Assembly: GCA_963675595.2 (NCBI GenBank)
Contig: CAXXLZ010000001.1
Location: 320,001 to 384,000 of the forward strand
From: Thermodesulfobacteriota bacterium
GTDB lineage: Bacteria; Desulfobacterota; Desulfarculia; JACQYL01
Reading direction: 5' to 3'
DNA length: 64,000 nt
How positions within the stretch are numbered: the first letter of the stretch is position 1; the number at the start of each line of letters is the position of its first letter. Positions 1 to 25,846 of this stretch are shown piece by piece. The position numbers and the translations under genes were made by a program. The notes under the pieces are model-generated. The model was not told the DNA's origin. It worked only from the letters and a program-made list of their open reading frames with translations, and did no database searches.

Positions 1-1104
1 CAGGCGGCCTGGTGGCGAGACCTGTTCCTGGACGGTCTCGGCGAATTCATCTACATCAATGGAATCGATTACCGTGGCGAACCCCTGGTGGACTTCACCT
101 TTCCGATGGAGAGGGCCGGGACCTTCGCCAAAGGTCCATTCACGGAATTCCCCGGGAATCTCATTCCCGTGGGGGGAGGCAAGGACTCCGCCGTCACCCT
201 GGAAGTCCTCCGACCGCTGCGGTCCCGTTCGTGGGCCTTTCTGCTGAACCCCACGCGGGCCATGACCGACTCGGTACGCATCGCCGAAATTCCCCCGGAA
301 CGCACCCTGATCATACGCAGAGAAATCGAACCCGGACTTCTGGAACTCAACCGGCGAGGATACCTCAACGGACACACACCTTTTTCCGCCTACCTGGGGT
401 TCCTGGGGGTGCTCTGCGCCCGCCTCACGGGATGCGGCCACATCGTGCTGTCCAATGAAACCAGTTCCAACTACGGCAACACGGAATACCTGGGACGCAC
501 GGTGAACCATCAGTATTCCAAGAGCCTGGATTTCGAGGGGAAGTTCGACGAGTATGTCCGCGCTCACCTGGAACCGGGGATTCGGTATTTCAGCCTGCTC
601 AGGCCCCTGGAGGAACTGCGCATCGCGCGGCTCTTCGCCTCCCTTCCCGAATACCCGGACGTGTTCCGAAGCTGCAACGCGGGCATGAAGGAAGACCGTT
701 GGTGCGGAGAATGCGCCAAGTGTCTGTTCGTGTACATCATGCTGCACCCCTTTATGCCCCTTTCCCGTTTGACGCGTCTGTTCGGCGGGGACCTGCTGGA
801 TCGGGAGGACCTCCTGCCCCTGTTCAAACGTCTGCTGGGAAGGGAAGGAGTCAAGCCTTTCGATTGCGTGGGCACGCAGGAGGAAGTGGGCGCCGCCCTG
901 GCTCTGAGCCTTCAGGCCGTGCGAGACCAGGGGGGCAAGCCGCCGGTGTTGCTCGACCACTTTGGACGCCTCCTCGCGGAGGAGGGGCGAAGTCCGGATC
1001 GGGAAGCGAATCGGGCCCGGGACCTGCTTAGGCGGTTTCACACGGATCACCGGGTTCCCGAAGAATATCTACGGTTGCTCCGCCGTTTTATGGCAGACCG
1101 CTGA
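1..1104 (+). CDS. murL: UDP-MurNAc-L-Ala-L-Glu epimerase MurL (5' end outside window)
   Basis: Frame open from base 1 (LDGLGEFIYING); motifs GGGKDS, NGHTPFS, SNE, VNHQYSKS, SCN, WCGECAKC and KPFDCVG; lies upstream of a MurD-family ligase. Confidence 0.85.
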   Translation, partial: QAAWWRDLFLDGLGEFIYINGIDYRGEPLVDFTFPMERAGTFAKGPFTEFPGNLIPVGGGKDSAVTLEVLRPLRSRSWAFLLNPTRAMTDSVRIAEIPPERTLIIRREIEPGLLELNRRGYLNGHTPFSAYLGFLGVLCARLTGCGHIVLSNETSSNYGNTEYLGRTVNHQYSKSLDFEGKFDEYVRAHLEPGIRYFSLLRPLEELRIARLFASLPEYPDVFRSCNAGMKEDRWCGECAKCLFVYIMLHPFMPLSRLTRLFGGDLLDREDLLPLFKRLLGREGVKPFDCVGTQEEVGAALALSLQAVRDQGGKPPVLLDHFGRLLAEEGRSPDREANRARDLLRRFHTDHRVPEEYLRLLRRFMADR

Positions 1105-1219
1105 AAAACGCGATCTGCAGCGTTGCGCTTCGTCCCTTGTCGCTGCGACGTACTTACATGTACGGTCTCACTCCGCGGGATTTGCGCGCCTTGCATCTCA
1201 TCGTTTTTCAACAGCCTGC
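1093..1219. mobile_element. ~125-bp MITE-like element, copy A
   Basis: Imperfect terminal inverted repeats GCAGACCGCTGAAAAACG ... CGTTTTTCAACAGCCTGC; interior homologous to 5996-6118. Confidence 0.75.
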
Positions 1220-1542
1220 CCGAGGATCACGAAGCGGTAAGCCGCATTGCCGATGAAGCGCATTCAAGCTGAGACGCCTTCGTCCAAGGTTCCACTCGCT
1301 ACGGTGCCGGCAGCCTGTACACGGAGAACACCGGGTTCCGGTTGCGACGCGCAAGCGAGCAACCCTTTTGAGAAGTTTGGGAAGCAACTGTGTTCTTTGT
1401 CAACTGAGTTGTTTGTCACTGATTCCTATGAAGCTGTAACACGGCGCTTGCTAGGCGCGGCACGCGTGGGGCTGCCGCGCGCAAGCACCGCGCCACAGCA
1501 GACCACGGCAGCATCGGTTAACCGATGTGATACATAAACCGG

Positions 1543-2706
<1,164 letters not shown>

Positions 2707-2835
2707 CTAAATATACAAGGGGTCCGGGGAAACCCTTTTCAAAGGGTTTCCCCGACTGTCCCGCCGGGGCTCATTCTCTTGAAAGCCGGACATCAACAGA
2801 GATCACCCTCGTTTTCGACGGAGTCTGGAACACTT

Positions 2836-4308
2836 ATGGAGCCTTGGAAATCCATTCTTGATTTGGTGAGGGACCGAAAGGTGCTCATCGCGGGATTCGG
2901 CCGGGAAGGGCGAAGCACCTACCGGTTGCTTCGGGAGCGCCTGCCCGAGCAGGTTCTTCACGTGGGGGACCGCAACGGCTCCCATGAGGCTCTGGACGGG
3001 TTGCGAGGCGACCCCAAGGCGGTGCTTCACACGGGAGACGCCTACCTCCGGGACCTGGAGTCCTATGATTTGGTGATCAAGGCTCCGGGCATTCCGCCCT
3101 CCGAGCTGGGGCCGGCCGCCGTTGGTCACAAGATTACTTCCCAGACGGACCTGTTCCTGCGGGTCTGCCCCGGAACCGTGGTGGGCATCACGGGCACCAA
3201 GGGGAAAAGCACCTGCGCGTCCCTGACCTTTGCGCTGCTCAAGGCCCACCACACCGACGTGCATCTTCTGGGCAACATCGGACGGCCCGCTCTGGACGAC
3301 CTGGACCGCCTCACTCCCGATTCCCTGGTGGTGTACGAACTGTCCAGCCACCAACTGGCCGACGTGCACAACAGCCCGCAAATCTCCGTGCTCCTCAACA
3401 TCTATTCGGAACATCTGGACTATTACGAGAACATGGAAGCCTATGTGCGGGCGAAAACCAACATCGCCCGGTTCGCCGGTCCTCGGGATGTGCTGATCTA
3501 TAACGATTCCTTTGAGGAACTGCGCCACGCAGCCCAAGAGTCGGCGGCCCGGGGAATCTTTTATTCCTTGGAGTGCTTGGATTGTAGCTTGGCGGATTCG
3601 TTGGGCTCGGCAAGGGGAGACTCTTCCGGAGAAAACCTCGCTGAACCCCTCCCGAGAATATTATGCAGAGAGGATACCCTCTACCTGAGGGAAGGGGAGG
3701 GCGTGGAATCGGTGATTTCCGTGGAGGATATTCCCCTGGCGGGACGATTCAATCTGAACAACGTGATGCCCGCGATCATTGCGGCCCGGCTCCTGCGCGT
3801 GCCCGTGCCGGTGATCCGGGAGGCTCTGAAGCGCTTCACACCCCTGGAACACCGCCTGGAATTCGTGGGCAAATTCAAGGACATCGAATTCTTCGACGAC
3901 TCCATTTCCACCATTCCCGAATGCGCCATGGCGGCTTTGGAGCATTTCTCCGGCCGGGTAGGGAGCCTGATTCTGGGAGGGCACGATCGAAAGAACGACT
4001 ACCGCGCTCTGGCAAAAGCCTTGCTGAAACATCGCCCCGACGCGTTGATCCTGTTCCCCGGCACCGGAGACGCCATGCTCCGGGCTTTTGAAGCCGCACG
4101 AGGGACCTTGAATGCGGGCATCGAGACCTTTCGAGCACGCAACATGGAAGAAGCCGTGACCCTGGCCTATGCGCACACTCCGCGGGGCAAGGTCTGCCTC
4201 CTGTCTCCCGCGTCCCCGAGTTTCGGGCTGTTCAAGGACTTCGCCGACCGGGGAGACCAGTTCAAGATGTGGGTGCGGCGTTTGGGGGAGGCTTTCGACT
4301 CCAAGTAG
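2836..4308 (+). CDS. murD2: MurD-family ligase, probably MurD2 (L-Glu adding)
   Basis: GFGREG, GITGTKGKST, ELSSHQL, EHLDYY, HRLE, DDSIST and LLSPASPSF motifs; D2 assignment rests on adjacency to murL. Confidence 0.8.
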   Translation: MEPWKSILDLVRDRKVLIAGFGREGRSTYRLLRERLPEQVLHVGDRNGSHEALDGLRGDPKAVLHTGDAYLRDLESYDLVIKAPGIPPSELGPAAVGHKITSQTDLFLRVCPGTVVGITGTKGKSTCASLTFALLKAHHTDVHLLGNIGRPALDDLDRLTPDSLVVYELSSHQLADVHNSPQISVLLNIYSEHLDYYENMEAYVRAKTNIARFAGPRDVLIYNDSFEELRHAAQESAARGIFYSLECLDCSLADSLGSARGDSSGENLAEPLPRILCREDTLYLREGEGVESVISVEDIPLAGRFNLNNVMPAIIAARLLRVPVPVIREALKRFTPLEHRLEFVGKFKDIEFFDDSISTIPECAMAALEHFSGRVGSLILGGHDRKNDYRALAKALLKHRPDALILFPGTGDAMLRAFEAARGTLNAGIETFRARNMEEAVTLAYAHTPRGKVCLLSPASPSFGLFKDFADRGDQFKMWVRRLGEAFDSK

Positions 4309-19445: not shown

Positions 19446-19997
19446 TTTCCTATGTGGCCTCAAATCAAGCCGAAATTGAATAACCTTTTCCTATTCGCGC
19501 CCGAAGCGCCAAGTACGCATGCGATGCTAAAACGAAGATGCCGCCATTTGCAGGACGCTGCGAATACAGCCAAACTTTAGCCGCGGCCACCCTCGCTGTT
19601 ACCGAATCGGCTTGAGGCACGGGACCCACCTCAAGTAGGGTCCCGAGCCGGTTGAGTCCGGTTAAACGTGTTTCGGGGGCTTCACGCCTGGGTTGCTTGG
19701 AGACGAAATTCAAAACACCGCTTTTCCAGGGTCAATCGCCACAAAATAAGGGCGAGTTTTCGTGCCAATGCGCAGATGGCCTTTTGGGGAAGACCCGTTC
19801 GACCCAGGAGTTTACGATAATGCAATTCGGCCGCCGGATCTTTGGACTTCCACGTCCAGGCCGCCTCCACCAACAGGCTCCGAAGCCGCGTCTGCCCCAC
19901 CGGATGAAGCGCTCCTCGGAATTTCCGCTCTCCGCTTTGTCGCACCAATGGGGCGAGTCCCAAGTAGCTGGTGACCTCCTCCGCCCGGAGAAACCGA
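19446..19997 (-). pseudogene. 3' remnant of an IS1111-group element (C-terminal recombinase plus complete right end)
   Basis: EEVTSYLGLAPLVRQSGE...RLQATQA homologous to 23026-24114; right end TTGAGGCCACATAGGAAA conserved. Confidence 0.88.
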
Positions 19998-21750: not shown

Positions 21751-22887
21751 TCAGCCCACCATGGCTTTCAATGCATTCGCCAAGGTATCCAGTTCGGCAG
21801 CGGTGTTGTAGCGCCCCAGGCTGATGCGTACCGAACCCGCGGTGCCGTTGCCCAGGTCGTGGTGCACCAAGGGAGCGCAGTGCAGGCCCGTGCGCACGGC
21901 AATGTCATAGTCGCCGTCCAGCACCATGCCCGCGTCGCCCGGGGTCCAACCTTCCACATTGCAGGAGATCAGGGGCACGCGGTCCGGTCCGTGCCCGGGA
22001 CAGTGCAGCCGCACCCCGTCCAGATCGGTGAGGGCGTCCAACAATCGACGGTGCAACTCCGATTCCCGGTGCAGGGCCCGCTCAGCCTCCAGGCTTTGCA
22101 GATGGTCCAGGCATCGGCTCAGGATCAGAATGCCCAGCAGGTTGATGGTGCCGGCCTCCAAACGCTCGGGATAGTCCGGGCTTTGAACCAGGCGAGCCGA
22201 GTCCACGCCCGTGCCGCCGAAGCGGCTGGGCCGCACATCGAGTTCGGGGTCGACGACCAGGCCCCCGATGCCGGACGGGCCCAGCAGGGCCTTGTGCCCG
22301 GTGAAGGCCAGGCCGCTCACTCCCCAATCGCGCATGTGGATGGGAATCGTACCGGCGCTCTGGGATACGTCCAGAATCAACGGAATCCCGCGCATACGGC
22401 AGATACGGCCGATTTCGGCAGTCGGCTGCACGGTGCCCAGCACGTTGGACGCGTGATTCAGCACCACCAGGGCAGTGTTGGGCTTGAAGCACCGAGCCAC
22501 GGCCTCGGGCTCCACCACGCCCCGCCCGTTGAATGGAACCAGATCAAAGTCGCACACTCCGTTTTCACGTAGATGGTGCAGGGGACGAAGCACCGAGTTG
22601 TGCTCCAGCCGAGTGCTCACCACGTGCGTGCCCGGTGCGACGAGTCCCTGGAGCAGCGTGTTCAAGGCGTCGGTGGCATTGGCTCCAAAGCAGGTGACAA
22701 ATCCTTCCCCTCCGAAAAACGCGGCAATACGCTTACGCACCGCGTCCACCGCTTCCTGGGCGCGTACCGCGGAGTCATAGCCTCCGCGTCCCGGGGATGC
22801 GCCCATCTCCAGGTAGTCCCGCATGCCCTGTTGGAAGCAGTGGGAAGGCTTGGGAAAACTGGTGGCTGCGTTGTCCAGATAGATCAC
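21751..22887 (-). CDS. Class V PLP aminotransferase / SufS-type cysteine desulfurase
   Basis: IYLDNAATS, EHNSV, FTGHK and RTGLHCAP motifs; GTG start after GGAG. Confidence 0.9.
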   Translation of the reverse strand: MIYLDNAATSFPKPSHCFQQGMRDYLEMGASPGRGGYDSAVRAQEAVDAVRKRIAAFFGGEGFVTCFGANATDALNTLLQGLVAPGTHVVSTRLEHNSVLRPLHHLRENGVCDFDLVPFNGRGVVEPEAVARCFKPNTALVVLNHASNVLGTVQPTAEIGRICRMRGIPLILDVSQSAGTIPIHMRDWGVSGLAFTGHKALLGPSGIGGLVVDPELDVRPSRFGGTGVDSARLVQSPDYPERLEAGTINLLGILILSRCLDHLQSLEAERALHRESELHRRLLDALTDLDGVRLHCPGHGPDRVPLISCNVEGWTPGDAGMVLDGDYDIAVRTGLHCAPLVHHDLGNGTAGSVRISLGRYNTAAELDTLANALKAMVG

Positions 22888-23025
22888 GTTGGTCGACTCC
22901 GGGACCCGATAGGGTGTAAGCGTGAGGGAGAGAGGTTTGTATTCATTTGCCGGGGGAAATACCATGTTGGCCTCAGGTGCTCGATCGTTATGATGGAGCA
23001 TCACCCAAACAGAAAGGAGACCAAC

Positions 23026-24114
23026 ATGGTAGCAACGAAAGTAACAGAATTGGCCAAGTTTTTGGAGCTGGATATCGACCGTGATTTCCACGTCGGGATC
23101 GACGTACACAAAAAGAGCTACCACGTGGCCGTGCTTCGCAGCGACGGCGAGGTGAAGACTTTTGTGTCCTCGGCCTCTCCGGAGGCCATCGTGGCCATGT
23201 TGCTCCCCCACTTGAGGCGCATCCGAGCCGTAGCCTACGAAGCGGGGCCCACCGGCTTCGGCCTTGCGCGCACTTTGGCCAAAGCCGGGTTCAGCGTGAT
23301 CGTGGTGGCGCCGAGTCGGGTCCCTAGGCCGGTGACTGCGGGGGCCAAGACCGACCGCCTGGATTGCATGCGGTTGGCGGACCATGCCGCCCGAGGGATA
23401 TTGAAGTCCATCGCCGTTCCCACGGAGGAAGAGGAGGCCGAACGCAGCGTAATTCGCCGTCGGCACGATCTGGCCGACGGCACTCGACGCGTTAAGCAGA
23501 GAATTCAATCCCTTCTGCTGTTTCACGGTGTGGAGGCGCCTCCCGGGCTCAATCATTGGGGCCGAAGCGCTGTGGCGCAACTTCGAAAGCTTCGTCTGCC
23601 GAAGGAGGCCAAAGCGACGCTGCTCAGCTTGCTCCGTGAGTTGAATTTCCTCACAAAGGAAAAAGCCTTCATGGAGGAAAGGACTTCCAGTGTGTGCGAG
23701 AAACCTGAACACTTTGAGGAAATGCGATGCCTTCGAAGCGTCCCCGGGGTGGGTCCCATCACAGCGGCTACCTTCCTCCTGGAATTGTTTCGCCCGAGTC
23801 GGTTCCATCGGGTGGAGGAAGTGACCAGCTATCTGGGACTCGCACCGTTGGTAAGACAAAGCGGAGAGCGGAAATCTCGAGTGGCGCTTCCTCCCGTGGG
23901 TCAGACGCGACTGCGGAGTCTGTTGGTGGAGGCGGCCTGGACGTGGAAGTCCAGGGATCCGGCCATTGATTCGCATTATCGAAAACTCCTGTCGCGAACG
24001 GGCCTTCCACAAAAGGCCATTTGTGCGTTGGCACGGAAACTGGCCGTTGTTCTATGGCGATTGACCATGGAAAAACGGACCTATGAATTTCGTCTCCAAG
24101 CGGACCAAGCATGA
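23026..24114 (+). CDS. IS110-family DEDD recombinase
   Basis: VGIDVHK, YEAGPTG, KTDRLD, SVPGVG and QSG motifs; RBS AAGGAG. Confidence 0.95.
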   Translation: MVATKVTELAKFLELDIDRDFHVGIDVHKKSYHVAVLRSDGEVKTFVSSASPEAIVAMLLPHLRRIRAVAYEAGPTGFGLARTLAKAGFSVIVVAPSRVPRPVTAGAKTDRLDCMRLADHAARGILKSIAVPTEEEEAERSVIRRRHDLADGTRRVKQRIQSLLLFHGVEAPPGLNHWGRSAVAQLRKLRLPKEAKATLLSLLRELNFLTKEKAFMEERTSSVCEKPEHFEEMRCLRSVPGVGPITAATFLLELFRPSRFHRVEEVTSYLGLAPLVRQSGERKSRVALPPVGQTRLRSLLVEAAWTWKSRDPAIDSHYRKLLSRTGLPQKAICALARKLAVVLWRLTMEKRTYEFRLQADQA

Positions 24115-24119
24115 GCCGG

Positions 24120-24325
24120 TTAGGACTTGTTTAGGAGAACCCAACCGGCTCGGGACCCATACTTGAGGTGGGTCCCGAGCCTCAAGCCGGGAGAAAAAAG
24201 CGGAGACGGCCGCGATAAAGTTTGGCTGCATCGGTAGCGCTGGGGAAATGGCGGCATCTTCGCTTCTACATCGCATGTGTACTTGGCGCTTCGGGCGCGA
24301 ATAGGAAACGGTTATCCAATTCCGG
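24120..24325 (+). ncRNA. Candidate bridge/seek RNA in the IS1111 right end
   Basis: Hairpin at 24149-24179; internal loop at 24185-24227 with segments matching the insertion site; conserved in remnant 19470-19680. Confidence 0.6.
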
Positions 24326-24361
24326 CTTGACTTGAGGCCACATAGGAAACTTTCGAGAAAG

Positions 24362-25846
24362 TTTCCCCCGGTCCCCTTTCAAAACGTTTTAAGAGTGCCT
24401 CACCGCCTACGGCGGAGAGGGTGAGGGGGAAAATCAGGTTTGCTCGGTAATCTCCGGCGTTCCTCACATCTCCTAAGTGGACCAAAAATCTCGTAGGCAT
24501 TCGCGGGAGGAACTCGTCTATTGTAGGGGCAGGCCACAGTGCCTGCCCGAAAGACAGCCGAAGGCCCACCTTCTTCACTGCGCTACTAACCACTCCCTAC
24601 TCAAACGCCTCAAGCCGGCTTCACCGCCTTGGGCGGACTGAAGCTTCCCATGCAAGAACGCATTCAATCATAGGGGAGAGTACGGGTCCACGCCACGGAC
24701 CTCCCGGGAACGCCGAGCCCCAGCTCGGCAGACTTCTTTCCCTCCATCCGCCGTACCGTGAGGGTCACTCGCGGTTGTTCGTCCCGATGCACAGCGGACC
24801 GGGATGGTCTTGGCCGCGCGATTGACTCCGCCCCTGTGCCGAGCTGGGGCTCGGCGCTCCCAGGGCAACCAACCACGCTGTGAACGTGCCCCAACGTTCG
24901 TCTTACGCGTTCACGGGGTATTCGCGAAGAGCTCGGCAAACTTGCCGACGGGTTGCTCGTTTCGGTCTTGCGAATCGCGTACGCAATTCACAAAACAAGC
25001 AGCATGTGCCGTTCAACCGATTAAAACACCTGAAGTTTTTCGGAAGGAGCCCGAGGGAACCCTTTTTTCAAAAAGGGTTCCCTCGGATCCCCCTCTGAAG
25101 GCTCACAACTGAAATTTCCCCCGGTCCCCTTTCAAAGCGTTTTAAGAGTGCCTCACCGCCTACGGCGGAGAGGGTGAGGGGGAAAATCAGGTTTGCTCGG
25201 TAATCTCCGGCGCTCCTCACATCTCCTAAGTGGACCAAAAATCTCGTAGGCATTCGCGGGAGGAACTCGTCTATTGTAGGGGCAGGCCACAGTGCCTGCC
25301 CGAAAGACGGCCGAAGGCCCACCTTCTTCTCTGCGCTACTAACCACTCCCTACTCAAACGCCTCAAGCCGGCTTCACCGCCTTGGGCGGACTGAAGCTTT
25401 CCATGCAAGAACGTATTCAATCACAGGGCAAAGTCCGAGTCTCCGCCACGGACCCCCTGGGAACGCCGAGCCCCAGCTCGGCAGACTTCTTTCCATCCAT
25501 CCGCCGTACCGTGAAGGTCATCCGCGGTTGTTCGTCCCGATGCACAGCGGACCGGGATGGTCTTGGCCGCGCGATTGTCTCCGGCCCCTGTGCCGAGCTG
25601 GGGCTCGGCGCTCCCAGGGCAACCAACCACGCTGTGAACGTGCCCCAACGTTCTTCTTACGCGTTCACCGGGTATTCACCAAGAGCTCGGCAAACTTGCC
25701 GACGGGTTGCTCGTTTCACTTCTGCGGATCGCGTACGCAATTCACAAAACGAGCAGCATGTGCCGTCCAACCTATTAAAACACCTGAAGTTTTTCGGAAG
25801 GAGCCCGAGGGAACCCTCTTTTCAAAAAGGGTTCCCTCGGATCCCC
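24362..25846. repeat. ~753-bp non-coding tandem duplication built from several REP-like modules
   Basis: Units start at 24362 and 25115 (TTTCCCCCGGTCCCCTTTCAAA); partial diverged third unit to about 25935. Confidence 0.9.

Follow-up and report, generated by a model that had tools for sequence, protein, structure and literature searches.

The 64,000-nucleotide (nt) window analysed here, the whole of positions 320,001-384,000 of the forward strand of contig CAXXLZ010000001.1 from a Thermodesulfobacteriota bacterium, carries an insertion sequence that, judged by its sequence features, is a member of the IS1111 group of the IS110 family, a previously undescribed element of a known kind. All coordinates below are window positions. 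The element is very probably autonomous, combining a DEDD transposase with a bridge (seek) RNA encoded downstream on the same strand, whose loop would guide targeting. Two segments at fixed positions of the right end changed together with the insertion-site flanks across related lineages, and they lay in a conserved predicted RNA structure.

In the mechanism that we propose, the transposase would bind and act with an RNA produced from the + strand, with ends placed provisionally at about 24184-24328. An internal loop of this RNA would read the target. Its 5' strand, AAAGUUU, would pair with the top strand over the AAA core and the adjoining CTTT, and its 3' strand, CUGGGGAAA, with the bottom strand over the left flank and core. 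A second region of the RNA contains AUAGGAAA, which equals the right terminus, and a weaker complement of the left terminus; together these would hold a circular donor. On excision, TTGACT and TACCAT would come to lie 17 nt apart and form a promoter. The target, GGGGAAA^CTTT (the caret marks the insertion point), is one arm of a palindromic dispersed repeat, and insertion there consequently splits a hairpin.

Element anatomy and family membership

A preliminary description of the window had identified an IS1111-type element splitting a perfect hairpin. All of the sequence strings that it listed were present where it had placed them, and the identification was upheld by the protein domains, by a 14-base-pair (bp) stem formed on joining the flanks, and by an empty site in public sequencing run X1. 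The pentanucleotide GGAAA was found twice, outside the left end (22955-22959) and at the right end (24345-24349). The non-coding ends measured 66 bp on the left and 235 bp on the right, with the longer one downstream of the transposase gene, as in the IS1111 group.

The transposase gene was the sole long open frame on the + strand of the element (Table 1). Its product matched PF01548 (57.9 bits) and PF02371 (78.8 bits) in a profile search, and scored 228.5 bits against NCBIfam NF033542, 'IS110 family RNA-guided transposase', for which the cut-off is 140. Among solved structures, the closest chains were those of the transposases of ISCro4 and IS621, both only weakly similar; GIDV, EA and KTD..D of the transposase were aligned and conserved in the ISCro4 alignment. 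The DEDD and IS116/IS110/IS902 domains, the acidic residues and the SG motif of the IS110 family were all found. The motif GL-P----SG, seen as YLGLAPLVRQSG in the translation, is a feature of IS1111-type proteins (PMC11187229).

The sub-terminal inverted repeats reported in the preliminary description were also confirmed. They were 11 nt long, a length within the 7-17 bp of the IS1111 group, were complementary at 10 of 11 positions (91%), and began 8-9 nt from each end. As in the IS110 family, insertion was site-specific and involved neither terminal inverted repeats nor a classical target duplication: eight sites shared one motif, and the empty site showed a 5-nt overlap in place of a duplication.

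Copies, insertion sites and an empty site

The host genome (6.79 Mb in three contigs) contained eight full copies of the element, seven at 100% identity and one at 99%. All eight sites read [C/T/A][G/T]GGGGAAA or GGGAAAA, with left flanks ending in GGGGAAA at seven sites and in GGGAAAA at one. Right flanks began with CTTTC (5/8), CCTTT (2/8) or AACTC (1/8). When the flanks in the window were joined in silico, they gave a 32-nt hairpin (-23.8 kcal/mol with RNA parameters) in which a perfect 14-bp stem closes a loop of 4 nt.

One 178-nt contig of run X1 (depth 7.6) joined position 22954 to 24345, skipping 1390 bases with five letters ambiguous. Relative to the window it carried three substitutions and one inserted base, all in the unique left flank, and it therefore represents a co-occurring variant with an empty site and an intact hairpin. 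Given the seven identical copies and this polymorphic empty site, the element appears to have been recently active.

Copies were found in both directions relative to the longer hairpin-bearing repeat, as expected for a palindromic target. Base composition predicts about 2.6 genomic occurrences of the string GGGGAAACTTT; 19 were observed, and 11 intact palindromes of the target type were counted. Segment 24350-24640, immediately right of the element, had 53 genomic matches, which makes the target part of a dispersed repeat family. A solo 69-nt left-end fragment (C2:3813470-3813538, 97% identity) stopped at the start codon and was located after ..CACGAAA, a site that fits neither guide.

A conserved RNA scaffold in the right end

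Right ends of 10 related sequences were aligned with MAFFT. The relatives were the truncated sister copy in the window, metagenome loci L049 and L050 (about 72-75% nucleotide identity), L011 (55% protein identity), the Desulfovibrionaceae lineage L012 (seven copies, 50% protein identity), and L037-L040 from the class of the host. Loci L013-L015, L021, L023 and L024 were used solely as extra L012 insertion sites. L051 is the L049 element cut at its right end and was not counted separately, and L062 (Tritonibacter plasmid, 46.8% protein identity) was kept outside the matrices as its right terminus was not found. A protein search of the host's class (95 genomes) yielded relatives at 43-56% identity in five genomes besides the host (G000), and a pattern search of the host's phylum (401 genomes) yielded, besides G000, G007 (L040) and G015, whose contig C23 (L030) was taken to be a new lineage.

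The right end folded well below shuffled controls in energy (z = -4.13). The 10 right ends shared a consensus structure of 17 pairs in four helices, in which 94.7% of cells were paired and nine pairs showed compensatory change. None of 500 shuffles was as good, and sliding the partner strand gave pairing in 21-48% of cells. The helix cells included eight G-U and one C-A, an excess that favours the + strand, which is the strand of the transposase.

The layout was constant: a CCGC closing stem was followed by a 5' strand of 11-12 nt, a cap hairpin of 14 nt, a 3' strand of 12 nt with AAA plus two bases at its end, and GCGG. The CCGC/GCGG closing stem was paired in 100% of cells, with two compensatory pairs. 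Single-sequence folds added a variable long stem below the target loop, and six of the 10, as read by eye, had an outer stem enclosing everything up to the -35 box. Secondary structure is conserved around the guides, as in bridge RNAs and seekRNAs, and the scaffold supports the guide RNA that the preliminary description had predicted downstream of the recombinase gene.

That description had also noted a hairpin after the stop codon, which was found to have 13 bp, and had suggested a pseudoknot. The loop CTTGAGG (24162-24168) does complement CCTCAAG (24180-24186). However, among the right ends read, none but those of this element and the truncated sister copy had the hairpin, and the predicted fold also uses CCTCAAGCC for the 5' side of the outer stem, in competition with the pseudoknot. 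Both of these pairings lie outside the conserved core.

Guides covary with insertion sites

In the 5' strand of the target loop, AAAGTTT (24217-24223) is complementary to AAA^CTTT, the top strand of the core and right flank. In the 3' strand, CTGGGGAAA (24240-24248) is identical to the left flank as read on the top strand. Counted outward from the core at the eight sites of the element itself, the left guide matched over 7, 3, 9, 7, 7, 8, 7 and 8 nt; the right guide matched over 7, 4, 7, 7, 7, 5, 7 and 4 nt.

Each guide was then compared with its own and with other lineages' flanks, scoring contiguous identity including the core on the left and the longest exact complement on the right. Left guides of nine lineages matched their own flanks over 7.0 (mean of eight sites), 8, 7, 5.3 (mean of seven sites), 8, 8, 8, 8 and 5 nt, with an off-diagonal mean of 3.9; the observed sum was reached in 2 of 200,000 permutations. 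Right guides of 10 lineages gave 6.0, 9, 11, 6, 7.0, 4, 5, 4, 9 and 9 nt, with an off-diagonal mean of 3.7, and 0 of 200,000 permutations reached the observed sum. The diagonal was dominant in both matrices.

Among the individual lineages, L049 at site CCCAAAAA^ATTAGAAC had right guide GGTTCTAATTTT and left guide GGCCCAAAAATG, matching over 11 and 8 nt respectively. L012, with right guide GATAAAGTTTTT and left guide GTCTCCAAAATG, was found at seven sites of the form [TC]CAAAA^ACTTT and matched over a mean of 7.0 nt on the right (range 4-9) and 5.3 nt on the left. L050 at TTTCAAA^GACTT matched over 6 nt right and 7 nt left, and L011 at GTAAA^AAGTCCA over 9 nt right and 5 nt left. L030, read on the right side only, is followed by GCTCTAG, which its right guide GGCTAGAGCTTG matched over 9 nt.

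The sister copy in the window is followed by CTTTAG, matched over 9 nt by its right guide GGCTAAAGTTTG. It has kept AAAGTTT, lengthened to CTAAAGTTT, and has a different left guide (GTCCTGCAAATG); its left flank is lost and was not recoverable. Three genomic occurrences of the predicted sister target, CTGCAAACTTT, had no element inserted. In a more distant clade with other termini (L016-L020, 38-45% protein identity), the strand at the same position repeated the left flank in 4/5 loci, over 10, 6, 8 and 7 nt by eye. The target loop of the fifth locus, L016, was not located by pattern.

AAAGTTT lies 5' of CTGGGGAAA, and the two overlap at the core. The tested IS1111 members all have this order, with the complement of the top strand preceding that of the bottom strand in the 5' to 3' direction; in the IS110 type it is reversed (PMC11187229). 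By sequence, paired guides, their order and guide-target covariation are all those of a bridge RNA or seekRNA.

Donor side and circle junction

The string ATAGGAAA at 24301-24308, which the preliminary description had recognised as a repeat of the donor arm, is identical to the last 8 nt of the element (24342-24349) and behaves as a donor guide. The longer string GAATAGGAAA (24299-24308) was invariant in 10/10 aligned relatives, all of which have the terminus CACATAGGAAA. The distant clade has termini CATAACAG or CATAGCAG, and there the matching strings AATAACAG, TATAGCAGA or a one-mismatch version were seen by eye. This change of the string with the terminus supports its assignment as a right-end donor guide.

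A guide for the left element end may lie in the GTACTTG region, an assignment that we make tentatively. CATG-T-GTA of the element can pair with TACCATG, the left terminus, with one base bulged; a clean complement of TACCATG was looked for and not found. In many IS1111 elements the donor-binding bases are in a multi-loop (PMC11208160).

The strings TTGACT and TACCAT, which the preliminary description had placed across the circle junction, are present, and they would be separated by 17 nt (24333-24349) if the element circularised. Since circle-junction promoters are known in this family (PMC11187229, PMC12288879), a promoter role is plausible by analogy. A promoter and terminator scan revealed no separate signals for the RNA and one promoter-like site in the left end (22967-22994).

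Alternative explanations

Several observations weigh against the loop-guided reading. The bridge RNA is a prediction from DNA sequence and folding, and a scan of 22500-25500 with Rfam at expectation values up to 1 placed no family on the right end; its output was four weak matches to microRNA models, all on the neighbouring palindrome 25038-25100. Guide matches were poor at two of the eight own sites (3 nt on the left at one, 4 nt on the right at both). Right matches of L038, L039 and L040 (4-5 nt) were no better than off-diagonal values, some of which reached 8, as several lineages have A-rich targets or the AAAGTTT guide in common. Because the lineages are related, their independence is overstated by the permutation counts, and once near-duplicate targets were removed 32 and 7 of 200,000 permutations reached the observed sums, approximately the number that the identity permutation alone would give. 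Ends of single-copy relatives were set by conserved termini and not by empty sites. On the donor side, GTACTT is complementary to AA(A)TACC at 6/7 positions by eye, with a core mismatch or a 1-nt bulge, and this candidate left-end guide lies in a predicted hairpin in the relatives.

The preliminary description had drawn the target loop elsewhere, as AGCC[GGGAGAAAAAA]GCGG..CCGC[GATAAAGTTT]GGCT, with GGGAGAAA reading the left flank. Its strings are at 24185-24188 (AGCC), 24189-24199 (GGGAGAAAAAA), 24200-24203 (GCGG), 24210-24213 (CCGC), 24214-24223 (GATAAAGTTT) and 24224-24227 (GGCT). The match of CCGGGAGAAA to the left flank of this copy at 9 of 10 positions is real, and the segment order would resemble that of IS621. 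However, a match as good was seen in 85 of 2000 dinucleotide shuffles of the 235-nt right end, so taken alone it is weak, and the equivalent segment in the relatives had only 3-5 nt in common with the left flank of each. The stems AGCC/GGCT and GCGG/CCGC were paired in 58% of cells and equalled by 218 of 500 shuffles (10 relatives; the alignment is uncertain there). Copy 8, which sits at TGGGGAAA^CCTTTG, has a G inserted after 24188 and the changes A24195C and A24198C, and is unchanged from 24200 to the end; the same variant was found in runs X4 and X5 between GGGGAAA and CTTTCGA. Three positions of the supposed left guide are altered in these variants, and the GGGGAAA target is kept. The order of guides in this loop would also be that of IS110, opposite to the published IS1111 order (PMC11187229). 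We consider this loop very improbable, and from these tests take 24189-24199 to comprise an A-rich linker and, before it, the last part of the outer stem. Comparison across homologues upheld AAAGTTT as the guide for the right flank, spoke against GGGAGAAAAAA, and put the left guide in CTGGGGAAA. The preliminary description was in this way partly supported: the kind of element and the right half of the target loop were correctly identified, the left half and the stems were not.

The strong palindromy of the target would also suit a transposase that reads the hairpin through protein contacts or DNA shape, the matches in the right end being coincidences or relics of captured targets, and an RNA that is so far a prediction leaves room for such an account. 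We give it little credence, as two fixed-position segments changed with the flanks (nine lineages on the left, 10 on the right), the structure showed compensatory changes, and some lineages have non-palindromic targets, for example an A-run between two frames of an IS3-family element. Guide logic is symmetric, and the complement of the right end would match both target strands equally; the structured RNA might accordingly be an antisense regulator from the opposite strand. The 8 to 1 ratio of G-U to C-A cells in the four helices goes against this, as do the dependence of the long stem of the sister copy on G-U pairs (by eye) and the published IS1111 RNAs, which are co-directional with the gene (PMC11187229; PMC12288879). 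An opposite-strand RNA seems to us slightly less probable still than shape-directed targeting. Targeting by a loop of a + strand RNA remains our preferred reading.

Table 1. Features of the element, its target and its predicted RNA (window positions).
Feature	Positions	Strand	Remarks
Left target half CCGGGGGAAA	22950-22959	+	left hairpin arm (left target and AAA core)
Insertion sequence, IS110 family, IS1111 type	22960-24349	+	1390 bp; boundary ambiguous by the 5 nt GGAAA
TACCAT, -10 half of predicted circle-junction promoter	22960-22965	+	first bases of left end
Left sub-terminal inverted repeat TGGCCTCAGGT	22968-22978	+	pairs with 24330-24340
Transposase gene	23026-24114	+	362 amino acids (aa); DEDD RuvC-like domain and C-terminal domain with GL-P----SG motif
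Hairpin after stop codon, 13 bp	24147-24181	+	24147-24159 against 24169-24181; outside the conserved scaffold
Outer stem, 5' strand AAGCCGGGA	24184-24192	+	pairs with 24320-24328; minimum-free-energy fold
Long stem carrying target loop, 5' strand (AAGCGGAGA .. GCCGC)	24198-24213	+	predicted fold
Target loop, 5' strand GATAAAGTTTG (putative right-target guide)	24214-24224	+	contains AAAGTTT
Target-loop cap hairpin GCTGCATCGGTAGC	24225-24238	+	5 pairs, 4 with compensatory change
Target loop, 3' strand GCTGGGGAAATG (putative left-target guide)	24239-24250	+	contains CTGGGGAAA
Long stem carrying target loop, 3' strand	24251-24265	+	predicted fold and alignment
Small hairpin, then GTACTTG (tentative left-end guide)	24267-24285	+	conjectural
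Donor-region cap hairpin GCGCTTCGGGCGC	24286-24298	+	4 pairs, 100% paired, 3 compensatory
Donor segment GAATAGGAAACGG	24299-24311	+	contains ATAGGAAA
Outer stem, 3' strand TTCCGGCTT	24320-24328	+	minimum-free-energy fold
TTGACT, -35 half of predicted circle-junction promoter	24327-24332	+	
Right sub-terminal inverted repeat ACTTGAGGCCA	24330-24340	+	
Right target half CTTTCGAGAAAGTTTCCCCCGG	24350-24371	+	loop and right arm of split hairpin
5'-truncated sister element	19446-19997	-	81% identical; right end intact; guides different

Repeat modules, the left-end helix and the surroundings

A wider joint reading can be put forward, which we regard as a possibility rather than a probability: one conserved scaffold would have had its guide strands swapped repeatedly, the lineages would tile one repeat module, and a helix in the left end would gate translation. 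In its tiling part, sister lineages in distant taxa would use different positions of similar hairpin-bearing repeat modules. The element described here inserts in a hairpin arm; for L050 and the Desulfovibrionaceae lineage the insertion site is TTTCAAA(A), immediately after a similar hairpin. In its gating part, translation of the transposase would be confined to transcripts initiated within the element, for example at the circle-junction promoter.

The first 15 nt of the element (22960-22974) were 93% complementary to 23017-23031, where the transposase gene has its ribosome-binding site and start codon. This pairing recurred in 9/10 lineages, with a compensatory T>C / A>G change in the Tritonibacter plasmid relative. 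Such a helix would block translation of transcripts reading in from outside, and transcripts starting just inside the element would be free of it.

Similar modules, consisting of a hairpin plus CCCCTTTCAAA, were seen beside relatives of the element in one genome of the Desulfovibrionaceae and one metagenome contig. In the window, a dispersed-repeat block occupies 24350-25400, within which 24350-24640 recurs at 25112-25393 with 98% identity. A second long palindrome at 25038-25100 is the source of the spurious microRNA-model matches.

A class-V aminotransferase gene (21754-22887, - strand; PF00266, 247 bits) has its GTG start at a distance of 73 nt from the element's left end, which places the insertion in the upstream region of that gene. 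The X1 empty-site variant is without the insertion upstream of the aminotransferase gene. L037, L038 and L040 (G007, 1102-3569) were inserted at an A-run, CTTAAAAAA(A)^GC.ATAG. The A-run of L040 has an HTH_Tnp_1 frame on one side and an rve integrase frame on the other, which puts this insertion within an IS3-type element; this recalls ISEc21, which targets genes of the IS3 family.

Significance

RNA-guided IS110/IS1111 recombinases are under development for programmable DNA insertion. The predicted guide positions of this element were mapped to base resolution, and its relatives form a natural retargeting series, with the same scaffold and other guides and targets, which could show which loop positions tolerate reprogramming. 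There is also a lesson for annotation: a lone good match of a non-coding end to a flank can mislead, and here the comparison of relatives moved the left guide about 50 nt from the first choice. Knowledge of the IS110/IS1111 family is unchanged by the element.

Comparison with known systems

IS621 (Durrant et al. 2024, PMC11208160; structures 8wt6 and related) resembles the element in having a DEDD recombinase and an RNA of two parts, a target loop and a donor region, in which guide pairs read both strands around a shared core. The IS621 RNA, however, is encoded in the left end with its guides in the opposite order, the core is 2 nt, and both loops are simple internal loops, whereas the predicted donor bases of the element lie in a multi-branch region, as described for many IS1111 elements (PMC11208160). 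The two proteins aligned weakly (E = 3.9e-10) and in their C-terminal parts only. The REP-targeting elements ISPpu9 and ISPpu10 share with the element the presence of several copies at one position of a dispersed palindromic repeat (PMC12288879). They differ in belonging to the IS110 group, in having their RNA upstream of the gene, and in using another repeat family (PMC12288879).

The closest likeness is to the IS1111 elements ISEc11, ISPa11, ISKpn4 and ISPst6, which were compared by their published description (Siddiquee et al. 2024, PMC11187229). Their targets are different, the RNA of the present element is a predicted one, and its 362-aa transposase is slightly outside the 330-350 aa quoted for the group (PMC11187229). 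Like these elements, it has a long non-coding region downstream of the transposase gene, sub-terminal inverted repeats and the GL-P----SG motif. As in the tested members, two short segments match both target strands and overlap at the insertion point, with the top-strand complement 5' of the bottom-strand one; close relatives are naturally retargeted, and a junction promoter, here a predicted one, is shared (PMC11187229).

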